A DNA stretch of 32,761 bases, taken from positions 1 through 32,761 of the IMG/VR virus record IMGVR_UViG_3300017778_005394; one strand, 5' to 3'. Positions 15,415-32,761 of the stretch are shown one piece after another (position 1 is the stretch's first letter; every line of letters starts with the position of its first letter). The notes under the pieces were generated by a model. That model was not told where the DNA came from, did no database searches, and was given only the letters and a program-made list of their open reading frames with translations. The position numbers and the translations under genes were made by a program. The stretch comes from a virus (lineage: Duplodnaviria > Caudoviricetes).

Positions 15415-16182
15415 ATGGTCGTATACAGCAATTCTTGTAGCTTTGGTGCTCCACAAGAACATCCCACTTACGCCGACTATGTCAGTGAGCATTTCAAAGC
15501 GTCAGTGGTCAATCACGGGCTGATGAATAGCTGCAATCAACGCATCATACGCACTACCTTGCGAGATTTGTTAGAATTAAAAAAACAACATCATGACATC
15601 ACGGCATTGGTTGGATTATCTTTTATTTCAAGAGTCGAACTCTGGCAGTCAGACCTGCCAGCTCAAAGAAACGATGGACATTTTCATTCCATCTGTGTTG
15701 ATCATCAAAAAATTGACTGGAGTCTCAAGGGCCTAATTGATACCCGTGTACCCAACATACATCTCATGACTGATCCTGCAGTGCGAGATTACTACAAAAA
15801 CTGGCTGATACACTATTCACCCGAAGCTGAGATTTCAAATCTATTGACGAACTTATTGATGCTATCAGGGTGGGCAAAACAACACAACATAAATTTGTTG
15901 ATATTTTCAAACGTTGATGTGCTGCCTGCTGCAGATGCTGTGGGATACGATTCCCCTTTCCTGTCCACATTGGTAGAAGAAATACGCCAGGATCCTAGTT
16001 TCGTTGATCCTTGGCAATTTAGTTTTGGCACGTATGTGCTGGCACATGGGTTTCATCCCAAGGACTACCAGTTATATCGCCAACACGGGCACCCTGGACA
16101 ATTGGCACACGAATTTTTTTCTAAATTTTTAATAGATAAGTTAGAAAAAAATAGTTCTTGTGTCACATATACTGTACAATAA
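15415..16182 (+). CDS. Hypothetical protein, possibly SGNH-hydrolase-like
   Basis: 255 aa with N-terminal NSCSF, N.G....N.RI.RT and C-terminal GHPG..AH, reminiscent of SGNH blocks. Confidence 0.5.
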   Translation: MVVYSNSCSFGAPQEHPTYADYVSEHFKASVVNHGLMNSCNQRIIRTTLRDLLELKKQHHDITALVGLSFISRVELWQSDLPAQRNDGHFHSICVDHQKIDWSLKGLIDTRVPNIHLMTDPAVRDYYKNWLIHYSPEAEISNLLTNLLMLSGWAKQHNINLLIFSNVDVLPAADAVGYDSPFLSTLVEEIRQDPSFVDPWQFSFGTYVLAHGFHPKDYQLYRQHGHPGQLAHEFFSKFLIDKLEKNSSCVTYTVQ

Positions 16183-16204: not shown

Positions 16205-17968
16205 TTGATTAACATAAAGAATTTAACCGTTAAAAACTTCATGAGTGTGGGCAATGCCACGCAAGCGGTTGACTTTGATCGTCGTGATCTCACCTTGGTG
16301 CTGGGAGAAAATCTTGATCTGGGTGGTGACGGGTCCAGAAACGGTACCGGTAAAACCACTATCATCAATGCCTTGAGTTTTGCCTTGTATGGGCAGGCAC
16401 TGACCAACATTCGCAAAGACAATCTCATCAACAAAACCAACGGTAAAAACATGTTGGTGAGTTTGGACTTTGATCTTGATGGCAAGACCTATCGTGTTGA
16501 ACGTGGTCGCAAGCCCAATATCCTAAAATTTTATGTTGACAACGAACAGACCACTGCTGATGATGAAGCACAAGGTGATTCGCGAGAAACCCAGGACGTC
16601 ATAGAGCGGCTGCTGGGACTGAGTCATGATATGTTTCGTCATGTTGTGGCATTGAATACTTACACTGAACCGTTTTTAAGTCTCAAGGCCAATGATCAAC
16701 GTGTGATCATTGAACAGTTGCTGGGCATTACATTGCTGAGTGAACGTGCTGATCGCATCAAAGAACTCAACAAACAAACCAAAGATGCTATCCAGCAAGA
16801 AGAATTTAGAATACGTGCTGTACAAGAAGCCAATAAACGCATTGAAGAACAAATTGCTGCGGCTCAACGCAGACAAACACTCTGGCAAAAGAAACGCGAC
16901 GAGGACATTGCTGCATTTCAGCTAGCCTACGATGAACTTGGTAAAGTTGACATCGAAGCCGAATTACAAGCGCATCAAGCACTCACTGAATACAACATCA
17001 AGAAAAAAGCCATAGCCGATCTCACAGCCTGGATCAAACGCTGTGAATTAGATGAAGCCAGGGAAAAGAAAGAAATTGCCAAGATAGAGTTGGAAATTGC
17101 CAGCCTTGAACAACACACTTGCCACAGTTGTGGGCAGGCATTTCATGACAGCAAACACGAACAAGTATTAGAAGCCAAAAGAAAAGCATTGTCTGAGGCT
17201 GCAATGCAGGCCCTGTCTACAAACGGTCAATGGATGGAACATACTGACACATTGCAAGAGTTGGGAGAGCTAGGCACTCAGCCCCGTGTGTTTTATGATC
17301 AAGAATCCGACGCCTATGAACATCGTTCAAGCATGGCACATGTGTTGAGTCAGCTCATGTCCAAACAAAACGAAGTTGATCCTTATGTTGATCAAATTGC
17401 TGACATGACTGCACAGGCAGTACAGACCGTTGAGTATGACGCATTGAACGAACTCACCCGGTTGCAGGATCATCAAGAATTTTTGTTGAAGTTGTTGACG
17501 CAGAAGGATTCATTCATACGCAAGAAGATCATTGAACAAAATCTCAGCTATCTCAATGCTAGACTCACACACTATCTTGACAGGATTGGGTTACCGCATA
17601 CAGTGGTGTTTCAAAACGATCTCACTGTGCAAATTGAAGAACTAGGACGTGAACTTGACTTTGATAATTTAAGTCGTGGTGAACGCAATCGTCTCATACT
17701 CAGTATGAGTTGGGCATTCCGTGATGTCTGGGAAAGTTTGTATCGTCCTATCAACTTGTTGTTTATTGATGAGATGATTGACTCAGGCATGGACACTCAA
17801 GGTGTTGAAAGCAGTCTTGCATTGCTGAAGAAGATGAGTCGTGAACGCAATAAAAGTATTTGGTTGGTGTCGCATCGTGATGAACTTGCCGGACGAGTTG
17901 AGAACATTCTCAAGGTTGTCAAAAGCAACGGTTTTACAGAATATAACACGGACGTTGAAACAGTATGA
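16205..17968 (+). CDS. Recombination ATPase subunit, gp46/Rad50/SbcC-like
   Basis: Walker A NGTGKTT, coiled coil with CHSC zinc hook, signature LSRGE, Walker B LLFIDE and SH. The start is placed at TTG 16205, after AAGGA and an extended -10 TGtTATAAT (16184-92). Confidence 0.93.
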   Translation: MINIKNLTVKNFMSVGNATQAVDFDRRDLTLVLGENLDLGGDGSRNGTGKTTIINALSFALYGQALTNIRKDNLINKTNGKNMLVSLDFDLDGKTYRVERGRKPNILKFYVDNEQTTADDEAQGDSRETQDVIERLLGLSHDMFRHVVALNTYTEPFLSLKANDQRVIIEQLLGITLLSERADRIKELNKQTKDAIQQEEFRIRAVQEANKRIEEQIAAAQRRQTLWQKKRDEDIAAFQLAYDELGKVDIEAELQAHQALTEYNIKKKAIADLTAWIKRCELDEAREKKEIAKIELEIASLEQHTCHSCGQAFHDSKHEQVLEAKRKALSEAAMQALSTNGQWMEHTDTLQELGELGTQPRVFYDQESDAYEHRSSMAHVLSQLMSKQNEVDPYVDQIADMTAQAVQTVEYDALNELTRLQDHQEFLLKLLTQKDSFIRKKIIEQNLSYLNARLTHYLDRIGLPHTVVFQNDLTVQIEELGRELDFDNLSRGERNRLILSMSWAFRDVWESLYRPINLLFIDEMIDSGMDTQGVESSLALLKKMSRERNKSIWLVSHRDELAGRVENILKVVKSNGFTEYNTDVETV

Positions 17969-18975
17969 GTCTAGCACTTTGGCACTGGCATATTGAAATA
18001 TCCAGCAAGTGTACATTGCGGTGCCCTCGTTGCGCTCGGCAAGAAGTACCTGATGGATTTAAAAATACCGAACTGAGTTTAGAATTCTTCTGGCAAAATT
18101 TCCCTGAATCATTCATTCAGCACCATGTAGAAAAACTTACATTCTGTGGCGATGATGGTGATCCCATCTATGCACATGATTTGCTGGAAGTTATCAAATA
18201 TTTCAAGAATACCAAACCCACTATTGAAATTGTGATTGTCACCAATGGTAGTTACAAAGATCCAGACTGGTGGCAAGAGCTGGGAAGATTGTTGGATATC
18301 CAGGACAGCGTACATTTCAGCATTGATGGATACAACGATGCATCCAACAATCAATATCGTGTCAACAGCAACTACCACAGCATCATAGCCGGCGTCCAGG
18401 CACTGCGAGCAGCAAGCAAATGTCAAATTGTCTGGGCCGCAATTGCGTTTTCATTCAACGAGCAGCATTTGGAACAGATGAAAGATCAAGCCCAACAGTT
18501 GGGCATGGATCGGTTTCAGTTGACACGCAGCACCAAGTTCTATAAAATCTACCCCAGTTACGGACCTGTGGACACCCTGCAGCCCCGGGACGAATTGATC
18601 AGCAATACCTTGCGTTTTGAACGTGAGGTCACTGATTTTACAGGCCGTAGCACTGCGATTTGGTCCGTTAATCGCAAACTTTACACAGACAGTCAAGTAC
18701 AAAATAATGTGAGACCTCTGTGCTCAATTGGCAATAAAGGCCTCTATATCAGCGCACAGGGTAACTTTTACCCTTGCTGTTGGGTGGCCAATCGCTATGA
18801 ACACAACCAACCCTGGCAGCGGTTGGGGCAAAAATACAATCTGCACACACAGGATTTACAGCAAGTTCTCGCTGACAATTTCTGGCAAAATGAGTTCCAG
18901 ACCTATGGTTGGATTGAATGTCAAACCAAATGTGCTGCTGCTGTGGTCACAGAAGAATATGCAACTCAGTGGTAA
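17965..18975 (+). CDS. Radical SAM protein with C-terminal SPASM/twitch-like cysteines
   Basis: CTLRCPRC (CxxxCxxC), GDP, TNG and FSIDG motifs, plus C-terminal C...G..YPCCW...CQTKC. Confidence 0.88.
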   Translation: MSLALWHWHIEISSKCTLRCPRCARQEVPDGFKNTELSLEFFWQNFPESFIQHHVEKLTFCGDDGDPIYAHDLLEVIKYFKNTKPTIEIVIVTNGSYKDPDWWQELGRLLDIQDSVHFSIDGYNDASNNQYRVNSNYHSIIAGVQALRAASKCQIVWAAIAFSFNEQHLEQMKDQAQQLGMDRFQLTRSTKFYKIYPSYGPVDTLQPRDELISNTLRFEREVTDFTGRSTAIWSVNRKLYTDSQVQNNVRPLCSIGNKGLYISAQGNFYPCCWVANRYEHNQPWQRLGQKYNLHTQDLQQVLADNFWQNEFQTYGWIECQTKCAAAVVTEEYATQW

Positions 18976-18993: not shown

Positions 18994-19428
18994 ATGTCAT
19001 GGCTATTTGAATCTCTTGTAGTAGAATCGCTTCCTGAAGATTGTGCAGGATTTGTGTATTTGATCACAAACAACACAACCGGCAGGAAGTATATTGGTAA
19101 AAAACTGGCAAGATTTAAACGAACAACTTATCGAGTGGTTAAACTTAAAAACGGTAACAAAAAGCGCAAGAAAATCAGAGGTACAATAGATTCAGACTGG
19201 CAAACATATTATGGCTCATCACCCGAACTCTCCAAAGACATAGAACAACTAGGCATAGAAAACTTCTCCCGCGAAATATTGTATTATTGCAAAACCAAAT
19301 CGGAATGCAGTTATATAGAGGCTCGTGAACAATTCTCAAGACGTGTGCTGGAATCAGATGACTACTATAATGGTCATATTCAAGTTCGCGTCCATGGCTC
19401 GCATATCAAAGGCAAACTAAGCAACTAA
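18994..19428 (+). CDS. Short GIY-YIG family nuclease
   Basis: GFVYLITN...GRKYIGKK, Y.GSS, REIL, a catalytic-type E and YYN. Only 144 aa. Confidence 0.85.
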   Translation: MSWLFESLVVESLPEDCAGFVYLITNNTTGRKYIGKKLARFKRTTYRVVKLKNGNKKRKKIRGTIDSDWQTYYGSSPELSKDIEQLGIENFSREILYYCKTKSECSYIEAREQFSRRVLESDDYYNGHIQVRVHGSHIKGKLSN

Positions 19429-19790
19429 GGCTAGCACAGGCCAACATCGTGTGCCCTAGACCTGGATCTCAGATCACAGGGACGGAAGACTCACCGCGCT
19501 AGTGAGCACTCAACTACTACCCGAAAGGATGAAGATCGCAAACGCCGCGATTTAGTTGTTTGAAAAGGACAAAAGGCAAAAAAGACGCTTGAGCGATCAA
19601 GCACGTTTGTTGGCAAGGACTAGCATCTTGTTGATAAACCGCCGTTGTAATAAAGACGGGGATGGAGGTACCGGACAACCGCCTCTGCTAAACACCCTAA
19701 TGCTAGTGACTGTGATACTCGGATGATGTCGCATTTTTCTTTGCCCGCCCTGGGCAAAGAGTGACTGCTTTATCTGGATGATATCTTTAA
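19429..19790 (+). ncRNA. Candidate highly structured non-coding RNA (family not recognised)
   Basis: No ORF of 60 aa or more. Contains about 10 stems, GNRA tetraloops (GAAA, GCGA), G-U pairs favouring the + strand, and an 8-bp loop-distal pseudoknot. Boundaries are approximate. Confidence 0.65.
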
Positions 19791-19827
19791 AGACAGTACA
19801 TTGATGAACGCAGTGAAATCAATAGAA

Positions 19828-20865
19828 CTACGAAGTAGTTCTCAAAGCATGATGATTAGGCTCCAACAATGTATGTAACTTTTGAGTATTGTCAGGAAAT
19901 GATTCAAGTTGCCAATTACGAATGTTAAGGTTGTGTTGATAAATCAAACGATGTTGAATGATTGCCTCTTGTAACAGAGTCAATGGACGCAATGGGTAAT
20001 ACCATCCCTTGACTGTGGCGATCACAATGTGATCTAGCTCATAACAAAATTTTAAGATTTGCTGTTGTATTTGTTGCCATTGTTGATATACCACTCTCCA
20101 ATGTACCATCTGGGTTTCTATTAGAGATTCATCAATGTACTGTAGACATCTCCTCACTACAGATTCCCCATCATGCCACAGTTCTTCGCAGTTGATCCAA
20201 AGATGTGGATTGGAGAAGTCTATCATCTCATTGTTGGGATTGAACTTGTCAACTTGCAGATTCAATGCCAGCATTTCTCTTTGATCCCAGATTGGATCTG
20301 TGCTGCGTATCTTATTGGCAAAGAACCATTGGTGAACTGCTATGAACATGTCATCGTGGTAGTCTATGCTTTGACCAACATTGGTTTGATACTTGGCTCG
20401 ATTCAGGGCCAGTGAATGATAAGTCAAGTTAGGCGTAGTCGGTGACAGATAGATCATAGGCACATTGGATGTACTGCAAGATTGGATTATCTGGGCATAG
20501 TCAATGTCACAGGTGGTCAACAGATACTGCCAGATTTGAGGATCCTGCATACGTTGTTCTGTGAACCCCAGTGCCAGTGCGACTATTTCTGGTGGCATGG
20601 GCGCAGGATAAAAAGAGTGAAAAGTTTTGGTGTTTGTTTGTTGTAAGTCTGCTAGAGCCGACAAAAATTCGCTGTGTCCAGTTGGATGATTTTTTAAATG
20701 CTGATGTGCATTGTTGTTGTCAATGGGAGAGTCTGTCAACGATATCCATGCCTGCTGCTCAACATTGTAGACTTTGTGATGTCCGGTGAGCCAATGCAAA
20801 CTCCAGTCTAAAAATGTAGCCCCCACAGGTGCTGAACTGGTAACACATACTACTTTAGATGTCAT
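19828..20865 (-). CDS. Hypothetical protein, possibly sulfotransferase/P-loop-like fold
   Basis: Long ORF, probably starting at ATG 20865 (MTSKVVCVTSSAPVGATFLDWSL), which loosely resembles a PAPS-binding loop. Confidence 0.5.
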   Translation of the reverse strand: MTSKVVCVTSSAPVGATFLDWSLHWLTGHHKVYNVEQQAWISLTDSPIDNNNAHQHLKNHPTGHSEFLSALADLQQTNTKTFHSFYPAPMPPEIVALALGFTEQRMQDPQIWQYLLTTCDIDYAQIIQSCSTSNVPMIYLSPTTPNLTYHSLALNRAKYQTNVGQSIDYHDDMFIAVHQWFFANKIRSTDPIWDQREMLALNLQVDKFNPNNEMIDFSNPHLWINCEELWHDGESVVRRCLQYIDESLIETQMVHWRVVYQQWQQIQQQILKFCYELDHIVIATVKGWYYPLRPLTLLQEAIIQHRLIYQHNLNIRNWQLESFPDNTQKLHTLLEPNHHALRTTS

Positions 20866-21187
20866 CTGGCCAATCTCTAAACAGTGCGTGTTGTATATTG
20901 CCTGATACGAACTGATTGAAGCTACGATGCTTGTCTTCAAGCTCACCTTTGAGTGGTGCTACTCGGCGAAAAGCTTCATCCATCTGTGCCATGCCCGTGA
21001 ATTCCATGATGATCATCCACTCGGGCATGTCAGAGATTGATCTAAATCCCATCTTGCAACGTGTAATTCTATAACTTTCCATCTTGTTTTCTTCCACAAG
21101 ATGATCAAAGAAGCTGCGCATGTTGGTGACCCACTCAAGATCAGAGATGTCGCCTTGTTTGTCGGCCCATATAGTGTATAAGTCCAT
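20855..21187 (-). CDS. Small protein resembling the DUF6614 family
   Basis: 110 aa with the pattern MDLYTIW...RITRCKMGF...EF..MAQMDEAF...H...LFRDWPD, recognised from memory. Confidence 0.55.
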   Translation of the reverse strand: MDLYTIWADKQGDISDLEWVTNMRSFFDHLVEENKMESYRITRCKMGFRSISDMPEWMIIMEFTGMAQMDEAFRRVAPLKGELEDKHRSFNQFVSGNIQHALFRDWPDDI

Positions 21188-21627
21188 TATGTCATTGGTC
21201 CCAAAATTTCAAATCCATCTATTTGGCTCTTGTACAGATGTGCCTGCTCAAGATACAAATAATCAAAACCTCGTGCCCGATAGATGGCACATTCGGTTTT
21301 CATTGTTTCAATACCCAGCCTCAGTTCGGGACGATGATATGTCCAAGCAAACTGATCGCACAGGGCATTGCAATCATCAAACCTGCGTATCAAACTCCAG
21401 GCCACTAACTTATTGTCGTCATAGTAGCCAATGATGTCGGACCCTGGATCACGATACCGACTTGGAAACATCGGCATCACAGATCCAAACTTTTTGTAAA
21501 TGCAATAGGTTCTGTAGATGTCATCTAACTGCTGACATATTTCGGGGGTGGGTTTGAGATATTGCCACGCCACTGATTCAGTGTAGTTGGTCTCGTCAAG
21601 ATTGATCCTGGCAAATTGATAAGTCAC
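21187..21627 (-). CDS. GNAT-fold protein resembling the C-terminal domain of arginyl/leucyl-tRNA-protein transferase (ATE/Bpt)
   Basis: YY...KLVAWS...Y..P.L.LG......E....R.RG..YLYL parallels the ATE_C consensus. Confidence 0.55.
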   Translation of the reverse strand: MTYQFARINLDETNYTESVAWQYLKPTPEICQQLDDIYRTYCIYKKFGSVMPMFPSRYRDPGSDIIGYYDDNKLVAWSLIRRFDDCNALCDQFAWTYHRPELRLGIETMKTECAIYRARGFDYLYLEQAHLYKSQIDGFEILGPMT

Positions 21628-22127
21628 AGTCTAGGGTCCTGGCGATGTGCAAACAAGCCTTGTAGATAATCTTCGGGCCAGTTTTGATAGTAGCCCTTGT
21701 GAGCCAACTGTTGTGCTGCTGCTTCTAGTTTTGTTTTGTCTTGCAAGAATATCAGTGCGTATTGCCCTTGGTTCATTGCAACACCGTTGATGATTTCTGG
21801 CGAGTCAGGATGATCAGTTAGGGCCAACATATTCTTGTTGTCAAGATAATTGACCTGTACCATCCGAGCACAGTTTTCCATATGGCCAGCACTGACTGTT
21901 TTGGGATCATAAACAAGAGCCACAACCTCGCGTCCTTGCATGCCCCAGCGCCAGTGATTTACCAAATCAAAGTAGGGATCGTTACCTGGCACAATGGCAA
22001 TGGTGTTGGCTAACCTGGCCTGACGAGCATACGGGCACGGCGCCCAGTTGTTGAGTGCAGGGTTGGGCTTTTCAACAAAGTCCGTGATCCACTGCTCAAT
22101 GTCCAGTTTGGCTTGTTCAAAATCCAT
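21624..22127 (-). CDS. DUF1415-like hypothetical protein
   Basis: W...FV......L....CPYA N-terminal motif and an internal HP. Confidence 0.5.
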   Translation of the reverse strand: MDFEQAKLDIEQWITDFVEKPNPALNNWAPCPYARQARLANTIAIVPGNDPYFDLVNHWRWGMQGREVVALVYDPKTVSAGHMENCARMVQVNYLDNKNMLALTDHPDSPEIINGVAMNQGQYALIFLQDKTKLEAAAQQLAHKGYYQNWPEDYLQGLFAHRQDPRL

Positions 22128-29395: not shown

Positions 29396-30481
29396 ATGTT
29401 AGATGCCATCAAACCATTACTAGATAGCGGCCTGATCAATGAAGATGTCAGCAAAGAACTCAACGAAGCTTGGGAATCAAAGCTGTCAGAAGCCAAAGAA
29501 CAGGTACGTGCAGAACTCCGCGAGGAATTTGCACAACGCTATGAACACGATAAATCCGTGATGGTTGAAGCCCTAGATCGCATGGTAACCGAAGGTCTAC
29601 AAACAGAGATCGCTGCTGTGTCTGCTGAAAAGCAAGCACTGGCAGAGGATCGTGTCAAGTTCCAAGGCAAGATGAAGGAGTCAGCTACAAAGTTCAACAA
29701 CTTTATGGTGACAAAACTTGCTGAAGAAATTGGTGAACTGCGTAAAGACCGCAAGACTCACAACGAAAGCCTAGAAAAACTAGAAAACTTCGTTGTTCGT
29801 GCTCTTGCAAATGAAATCACCGAGTTTGCACAGGACAAGAAGAAAGTTGTGGAAACACAAGTTCGCTTGGTTCGTGACGCTCGTGTGAAGCTTGAATCAC
29901 TCAAAACAAGATTTGTCAAAGAATCTTCAGAGAAAATGACTCAGGCCATTACCAAGCATCTCAAGGCCGAACTACACCAATTGCGTGAAGACATCAAACT
30001 TGCTCGTGAGAACAATTTTGGTCGTCGTATTTTTGAAGCCTACGCAGCAGAATTTGGAGCAACTCATCTCAATGAGAACGCTGAAGTACGTAAGTTAAAC
30101 AGTGTAATCGCCGAGAAGAATTCCAAGCTCGCCAAGGCAGTACAGATTGCTGAACAGGCCCGTGTGGTCGTCGAAAGCAAAAATAGAGAGATTCGTCGTA
30201 TTCAGGAAAGCAACGAACGTGAAAGCGTTATGAGCGACCTGCTTGCTCCTCTCAACAAAGAGAAACAAGAAATTATGAAGAATCTGCTTGAAAGCGTACA
30301 GACACCTCGTCTGAAAAATGCTTTTGAAAAATATCTACCAGCGGTACTTGAAAACCGTTCTGTAAAAACTCAAAAGGTAATTACAGAAAGTGTTAGCGAA
30401 GTAACTGGTAATAAGCAAGTTTCAGCTCAAGATGACAATCGCAGCAATGTAATTGACATCAAGAGACTGGCTGGGCTATAA
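29396..30481 (+). CDS. Prohead core scaffold protein, gp22-like
   Basis: Coiled-coil 361 aa between the protease and major capsid genes, with AGGAG RBS. Confidence 0.8.
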   Translation: MLDAIKPLLDSGLINEDVSKELNEAWESKLSEAKEQVRAELREEFAQRYEHDKSVMVEALDRMVTEGLQTEIAAVSAEKQALAEDRVKFQGKMKESATKFNNFMVTKLAEEIGELRKDRKTHNESLEKLENFVVRALANEITEFAQDKKKVVETQVRLVRDARVKLESLKTRFVKESSEKMTQAITKHLKAELHQLREDIKLARENNFGRRIFEAYAAEFGATHLNENAEVRKLNSVIAEKNSKLAKAVQIAEQARVVVESKNREIRRIQESNERESVMSDLLAPLNKEKQEIMKNLLESVQTPRLKNAFEKYLPAVLENRSVKTQKVITESVSEVTGNKQVSAQDDNRSNVIDIKRLAGL

Positions 30482-32672: not shown

Positions 32673-32680
32673 TATAAATA
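32673..32680 (+). promoter_or_regulatory. T4-type late promoter TATAAATA
   Basis: Exact consensus followed by a structured leader and an AAGGAG RBS (32755-60) for a gene beyond the window. Confidence 0.7.
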
Positions 32681-32761
32681 TACTGTCCGCAATAATGCGG
32701 CTTATGCGGTATTAACCCACCGCGTAGTGGTTAGAACCCACATCGGACTTCTTTAAGGAGA

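Follow-up and report, generated by a model that had tools for sequence, protein, structure and literature searches.

The stretch of DNA analysed here (the window, 32,761 nt) is a fragment of a large T4-related phage that encodes a major capsid protein, a late sigma factor, gp46/gp47 and a baseplate hub. It contains a G-U-rich stem whose loop forms a pseudoknot; both are real, and they are the core of a folded RNA gene of ca. 400 nt that belongs to large tailed phages. The element combines a conserved fold with two repeats that stay identical to each other, differ elsewhere by one-way wobble changes and are followed by hairpins; it is independent of the nuclease gene beside it and has dispersed copies in cultured phages. 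From these comparisons we consider it somewhat probable that the element is an RNA-primed replication origin of the ColE1/T4 type, with the RNA serving as the primer.

The site lies within a 399-nt intergenic gap, between a GIY-YIG gene (18994-19428, + strand) and a convergent ORF. The first-pass annotation had described there a 13-bp stem in which GTTTGTTGGCAAG (19605-19617) pairs with CTTGTTGATAAAC (19627-19639) using four G-U pairs, and these coordinates proved exact. Its loop, ACTAGCAT, had been given as the exact reverse complement of ATGCTAGT (19700-19707), which it is, and each of the two 8-mers occurs once in the window; the loop, G-ACTAGCAT (19618-19626), has nine nucleotides, one more than claimed, and the conserved part of this first pseudoknot is 6-7 bp, the eighth pair being specific to the window. 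A stem of at least 12 bp together with an 8-nt loop complement appeared in none of 1500 dinucleotide shuffles of the intergenic region (the stem alone in 11). Of the two hairpins drawn between the 8-mers, the one with GAGG/CCTC is conserved as drawn, and the other gives way to a second pseudoknot plus a helix (19659-19661 with 19695-19697). All the parts are on the + strand: a small hairpin with a GCGA (GNRA) loop, read from the sequence (19587-19602), the stem with the loop that is the 5' strand of pseudoknot 1 (19605-19639), the 5' strand of pseudoknot 2, GTTGT (19644-19648), whose partner ACAAC is at 19675-19679, a conserved core (19659-19697) with the helix just mentioned, the GAGG/CCTC helix (19665-19668 with 19682-19685) and the near-invariant GGTAC.GG.C.ACCGCC, and finally the 3' strand of pseudoknot 1 (19700-19707).

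We examined covariation in an alignment of 64 homologues of family A, from which members with long inserts were excluded. The stem was paired in 87.2% of cases with two-sided changes at 13/13 pairs, and pseudoknot 1 in 98.2% with compensatory changes at 6/6 pairs. Pseudoknot 2 was paired in 99.4% (it is also exact in 50/53 family-B sequences) and the two core helices in 98-100%, while the slid controls gave 38-47%; shuffle controls take no account of relatedness among the sequences and hence do not amount to probabilities. The G-U pairs had been taken as a sign of a + strand RNA and the energies agree: folding of the stem is worth -12.9 kcal/mol in + RNA, against -6.2 in - RNA and -3.4 in DNA. 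Along the same lines, G-U outnumbers A-C by 104 to 10 among 617 cells (10 stem positions in the 64 homologues), which indicates that folding takes place in the + strand. For the gap as a whole, too, the + strand folds better than its shuffles (z -3.25, against -1.71 for the - strand), and GNRA loops are found 64 times versus 7 for their reverse complements. The earlier suggestion of a folded + strand RNA with tertiary structure is therefore borne out by two covarying pseudoknots, the G-U bias, the strand bias of GNRA loops and an Rfam match of the 5' third.

This match (19429-19561, + strand) covers the whole Polynucleobacter-1 model (RF01718), with 118.8 bits against a gathering threshold of 37, and takes up the first 133 nt of the element. 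Of 20 homologous loci examined, 6 also matched RF01718. The model ends 44 nt before the stem and lacks both pseudoknots, the repeats and the hairpins; 3' of 19561, including the stem and pseudoknot site (19605-19707), Rfam gave nothing significant. Moreover, families B and C, as well as the cultured copies described below, keep the 3' core under other 5' domains. In family-B loci (e.g. L045:1930-2130) the alternative 5' domain has recurrent G-UGARA-NA-C loops that, we presume, fit the T-loop motif. Elsewhere in the window, the cis-regulatory RNA freshwater-2 of Rfam was found at 32674-32761 (+ strand, 54.1 bits), cut by the window end; it stands directly behind the late-promoter-like sequence TATAAATA and ends in AAGGAGA. 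The Polynucleobacter-1 motif was published with no function given in the accessible text (Weinberg et al., 2010; PMC2864571). We found the full element described nowhere in the literature, in a coverage that lay largely outside subscription papers and was partial for the sources seen (including PMC2864571, PMC10690425, PMC7318152, PMC6102473, PMC5043065, PMC3016281, PMC4412123 and PMC13282480), and fragments of it may be among the unnamed candidates of one of them (mean 67 nt; PMC10690425, as far as its accessible part goes).

Homologues were collected in two ways. The GIY-YIG protein as query gave 80 viral loci, and a search with the core pattern at least 120 more; the 173 full-length copies were reduced to 130 non-redundant ones. 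Of the GIY-YIG loci, 72 extend 450 nt or more downstream; 71 of these have the RNA core or the repeat module, in some cases with another gene intervening, and the remaining one, truncated by the end of the locus, has the Rfam domain. Blastn searches of annotated phages with the elements of the window, family B and family C produced no useful match, and a pattern scan of bacterial genomes returned mostly chance matches (2/120 loci were real).

The gene upstream in the window codes for a SegE-type stand-alone GIY-YIG nuclease of 144 aa (Pfam PF19835, E 1e-33; PHROG 447). It precedes the RNA core in 72/80 loci, and in 60/68 informative loci of the second set. It is swapped for a PD-(D/E)XK gene in L110, L121 and L144 (two of the three scanned), and L091 and L101 lack it nearby. 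Among cyanophages the protein family is common, and in two annotated phages checked there is no room for the RNA behind the gene of this family, nor any match to our model. Thus, the GIY-YIG gene is a usual but replaceable neighbor and the element is independent of it. Other genes nearby are a DUF6071-like and a radical SAM/SPASM gene (15415-16182 and 17965-18975, + strand) inserted in the gp47-gp46-GIY-YIG run, and a cassette on the - strand (20855-22127) with DUF6614, a weakly ATE_C-like protein and an unknown protein.

The most telling feature, a pair of repeats behind the pseudoknot, was absent from the first-pass annotation. The first sign came from mutual information, which revealed alignment columns that covary by identity and not by complementarity. 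These belong to two repeats recognized by comparison of the homologues, both on the + strand: unit 1 (19706-19729, GTGACTG ... ACTC-GGATGAT-GT, 7-mer at 19721-19727), which starts on the last bases of the 3' strand of pseudoknot 1, and unit 2 (19761-19784, GTGACTG ... ATCT-GGATGAT-AT, 7-mer at 19776-19782). We predict that they are a guide and its DNA anchor, respectively. Between them are a U-tract and an 8-bp hairpin (19734-19759, from folding and covariation). The 7-mer has 13 different forms and is the same in both units in 125/126 loci (the 130 minus L192, without the module, L083, with a deletion between repeats, and L020 and L158, which were mis-anchored), where chance identity at the three variable positions would be 0.49, 0.50 and 0.62. 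On trees built from the scaffold alone, the 7-mer changed 33 times in family A, always jointly in both units, and the figures for family B were 23 versus 24. A separate scan for a rarer variant, in which identity was not required, covered at least 120 of an estimated ca. 1200 loci, mostly of a third scaffold family, and 110/120 had identical 7-mers; once 7 loci without the flanking motif and then the duplicates were removed, identity at the variable positions was 100/100, 100/100 and 96/100. The flanks of the repeats are fixed (ACTC and ATCT), with a spacing of 47-60 nt (mode 55). As to L083 (core +25 nt), its deletion takes the pseudoknot partner, unit 1 and the hairpin and leaves a single repeat; this reflects either slippage between the repeats in nature or an error of assembly.

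Where the two units differ, they mostly do so in one direction, with G/T in unit 1 opposite A/C in unit 2. This holds for position +7 (94 vs. 0), position +8 (20 vs. 3) and the TGAC segment (8 vs. 0, 12 vs. 0, 67 vs. 7 and 50 vs. 0); the opposite direction prevails at the first base of the TGAC segment (13 vs. 3) and at position -6 (40 vs. 8), and three middle positions of the repeat differ invariantly between the units. Such one-way differences, in which G-T and U-G wobbles are tolerated, suggest pairing between unit 1 and the complement of unit 2. The energy of this duplex, calculated with RNA parameters as a stand-in for an RNA-DNA hybrid, was better than that of the reverse arrangement in 114/126 loci (mean -22.0 vs. 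-17.4 kcal/mol, and -15.0 for cross-locus pairs). Within 2.5 kb the 7-mer has no complement that returns at a constant position, and none is internal, which points to the other DNA strand as the partner. It is thus very likely, as far as sequence comparison can tell, that the pairing partner of unit 1 is the template DNA strand at unit 2. Two further candidates were considered and set aside: an antisense transcript as partner of the 7-mer is unlikely, since the downstream gene is co-directional in some loci, and ribosome hopping between matched codons is at odds with a match of 7-9 nt and with a stop codon that some variants lack.

In lake metatranscriptomes exact contigs cover 19050-19723 at low depth, among them contigs over 19398-19723 (the data are unstranded, could include DNA and give no gene ranking). 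RNA-library contigs of related strains extend past unit 2 (193 nt in X1), so a sharp end is not seen in that clade. These contigs showed neither a joint between the repeats nor a pile-up of ends, at a depth of 5-15 and with rare forms dropped by contig assembly; stretches that lack coverage are uninformative. One fragment of X1, a single molecule, ends inside repeat 1. In another part of the window, contigs from two RNA runs skip 230 nt (29756-29987) inside the 361-aa gene preceding the capsid gene; the intervening letters are not known, so another strain may be the source.

A way to place the element among cultured phages was the late sigma factor, whose best matches were in PA5oct-like phages, Atu_ph07 and Rak2-like phages. 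In PA5oct and the Rak2-like phages, gp46 and a resolvase-type gene are followed at the same place by a long stretch in which no ORF is convincing, and then comes the baseplate hub; the syntenic gap of Atu_ph07 gave no match. The gap of ph0011 matches 73 records at 310 places, with 4-6 places per record among the 60 records listed. Five cultured Rak2-like genomes contain 24 copies (4-5 per genome), all on one strand, 44-116 kb apart and away from the genome ends, and the five GAP32 sites share no common neighbor gene (four were read directly and the syntenic one was taken from CBB). Pseudoknot 2 is complementary in 24/24 copies, in three forms with similar flanks, and the loop complement just before unit 1, the hairpin and the repeat pair are also present. 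The loop complement (6-9 nt, 24/24) was picked automatically; chance contributes to this count, and individual picks may be incorrect. Within one genome the repeats vary from copy to copy, but the two units of a copy agree in cis (the AYC and the first base in 24/24 each, the R position in 23/24, with G/A in the remaining copy); the base immediately preceding the repeat matches in only 16/24. Phage Munch, for example, has three repeat forms among its copies. The family-A covariance model gave E values of only 0.05-0.43 (not significant) against the Rak2-like copies and the Rak2 profile did not match the window, so the homology rests on gene order and structure and not on a significant sequence score. 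These dispersed co-oriented copies, with copy-specific and cis-matched repeats in cultured Rak2-like jumbo phages, are described here for the first time. The ph0011 copies (L486-L489) have a patchwork of identity, the 116k copy having a distinct 5' part and a repeat module nearly identical to those of the 198k and 314k copies, which suggests gene conversion or recombination.

The copies of PA5oct share ca. 125 nt at 83-84%. The one at 246 kb, a paralog of the syntenic element, is ncRNA004 (246116-246734, + strand; PMC7318152, Table 1), published as an RNA-seq feature with 0.02-0.08% of the phage reads and, in the part of the paper available, with no structure, family or function given (Lood et al., 2020). 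It is a + strand transcript without an ORF in which we could recognize by eye the pseudoknot, the core, the hairpin and a CATAAG repeat; the second repeat ends at base 246734, exactly the annotated end of the RNA, a coincidence noticed after the fact and depending on one manual annotation. The syntenic copy of PA5oct (L492, 75.8-77.1 kb) far exceeds its paralogs in length and has no repeat pair that we could locate; several tiny ORFs annotated there are probably spurious. Two near-complete lake genomes had one detectable copy each. A full element is also found, without a nuclease gene, in an island of a bacterial assembly (L561:1-11250, G012 contig C23), together with genes for an IHF-like protein, DUF6876, DUF6641, a Fic/MazE pair, two short tyrosine recombinases and an AAA protein that we take to resemble a clamp-loader subunit; this island is possibly a phage satellite.

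If the element is an origin, its parts could work as follows. The host RNA polymerase would transcribe it, the double pseudoknot would present unit 1 and the inter-repeat hairpin would place it beside the bubble at unit 2. Unit 1 would then invade the template at unit 2 and hold the RNA-DNA hybrid open, and from the persistent hybrid the phage DNA polymerase would gain a 3' end, located at unit 2 or close to it, either directly or after the action of RNase H. The displaced + strand could fold into the hairpins found downstream and so load a helicase or primase. In the window these are two abutting hairpins (19800-19842, + strand), the second with a C-GAA-G triloop, predicted from their fold and recurrence to act as single-strand DNA signals. 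In single-stranded DNA, loops of the C-GNA-G type have unusual stability. In 73/122 loci a perfect C-GNA-G triloop hairpin lies within 170 nt of unit 2 (the same loop on the opposite strand was counted 14 times), and the 30 nt following unit 2 are 68% AT.

Several observations argue for this origin. The identity of the 7-mers and the one-way wobble point to guide-template pairing, Rak2-like genomes carry 4-5 dispersed same-strand copies much as T4 has several origins, the annotated end of ncRNA004 is the last base of repeat 2, the bacterial island has a full copy without the nuclease gene, and ColE1 offers the precedent of a primer RNA that interacts with its template. It is weakened by others: there is no switch of GC skew at the element in G001, G002 or GAP32, where the skew follows gene direction, the lake genomes have a single copy and RNase H (PF00075) is present in only 2/5 genomes, being absent from the two lake phages.

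The same R-loop of guide and template might instead serve another DNA transaction, such as a transcription stop, a recombination hot spot or the start of packaging or resolution, a possibility that we judge unlikely. It would explain repeat identity and wobble direction equally well, as well as the end of ncRNA004 at repeat 2. The neighbor at the syntenic site is often a junction-cutting nuclease (GIY-YIG, PD-(D/E)XK, RusA-like or EndoVII) and the patchwork of the paralogs suggests recombination, but among the GAP32 copies the non-syntenic ones lack a nuclease immediately upstream. For a terminator, a 400-nt RNA with a double pseudoknot far exceeds what is required, and the copies are not located at genome ends. 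That the repeats are two binding sites, in DNA or RNA, for one phage protein with the RNA as a scaffold appears improbable. Their fixed flanks and narrow range of spacing could be read in this way, but the copies within one genome differ and match only in cis, and a protein would force neither purine identity through ca. 56 concerted changes nor a one-way wobble bias.

A ribozyme or a template-jumping RNA that cuts, splices or copies between the repeats is a slightly poorer candidate still. The double pseudoknot is compact, the core near-invariant and identical short repeats are typical of template realignment, as in telomerase. On the other hand, the first-pass suggestion of a ribozyme found no support: up to E = 10 Rfam gave neither a ribozyme nor an intron, and no gene is interrupted by the element. 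Besides, no internal guide complementary to the 7-mer was found, and the reverse transcriptase profile PF00078, which a divergent or host enzyme could escape, had no match in five genomes or fragments (two of them near-complete). Beyond RF01718, Rfam returned only alpha_tmRNA (E 2.7) and mir-146 (E 8.3), and nothing significant for RNase P, tmRNA, group I/II introns, C/D box or TIGR-like RNAs. A search for tRNA and tmRNA was negative. The role of RNP scaffold, also proposed at first, is possible; the most evident partner would be the GIY-YIG gene next to it, which some loci lack or have replaced. Finally, that the element is the guide RNA of the GIY-YIG domain, in an RNA-guided nuclease, is hardly credible, since, in spite of the frequent position of the gene directly upstream, the lack of a DNA-binding tail in the protein and a pseudoknot directly before the guide that recalls TnpB RNA, the linkage is not obligate (the RNA also stands beside a PD-(D/E)XK gene or no nuclease, and the two annotated phages with the family have neither room for the RNA nor a model match), PF19835 was found by profile search in 0/5 cultured element-bearing genomes (the control genomes were negative as well) and the target would be the phage itself.

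If the preferred reading, an RNA-primed origin, is true, the element would supply an origin for these jumbo phages, for which none was found in the literature covered or in the accessible part of a 2026 review, and would give a function to a motif that has been unexplained since 2010. It would also bear on the question, posed as open in the accessible text of PMC3016281, of which sequence rules govern origin R-loops. More speculatively, and with little confidence, we can envisage a self-guided RNA family across the jumbo-phage lineage and parasitic islands, a programmable origin without an initiator protein, with a swappable guide that sets where the DNA is opened and possibly RNA-catalysed steps. 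Since cultured E. coli phages of the genus Asteriusvirus carry the element (the records listed include phage Sharanji on K-12 MG1655), the origin idea is directly testable.

Among known systems, the guide RNAs of TnpB and IscB and the bridge RNAs have a structured scaffold followed by a DNA-pairing guide, as the element does. They differ in that the element has no linked effector or transposon ends and its target is fixed in cis, 55 nt away. The ColE1 pre-primer RNA II is similar in having an RNA segment that interacts with the template strand (accessible parts of PMC5043065 and PMC4412123); specifically, a run of rG in the primer RNA has to interact with a run of dC on the template (PMC4412123). 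Nevertheless, RNA II has no sequence or Rfam similarity to the element, its anchor is a G/C run whereas that of the element is a mixed, covarying, two-part repeat of ca. 24 nt, and the element has a phage setting, several copies and no antisense control RNA that we could see. T4, a relative of the phage studied here, has at least five origins of the R-loop type according to the accessible text of PMC3016281, and its oriF and oriG are likewise among several dispersed origins, primed by R-loops beside an AT-rich stretch. They consist, in the same source, of ca. 100 bp with a promoter and an unwinding element, have little sequence in common and form R-loops without a specific sequence, in contrast to the conserved RNA fold of 400-650 nt and the sequence-matched anchor of the element. 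Our best reading is that the element would work like ColE1 RNA II and the R-loop origins of T4 while belonging to neither.
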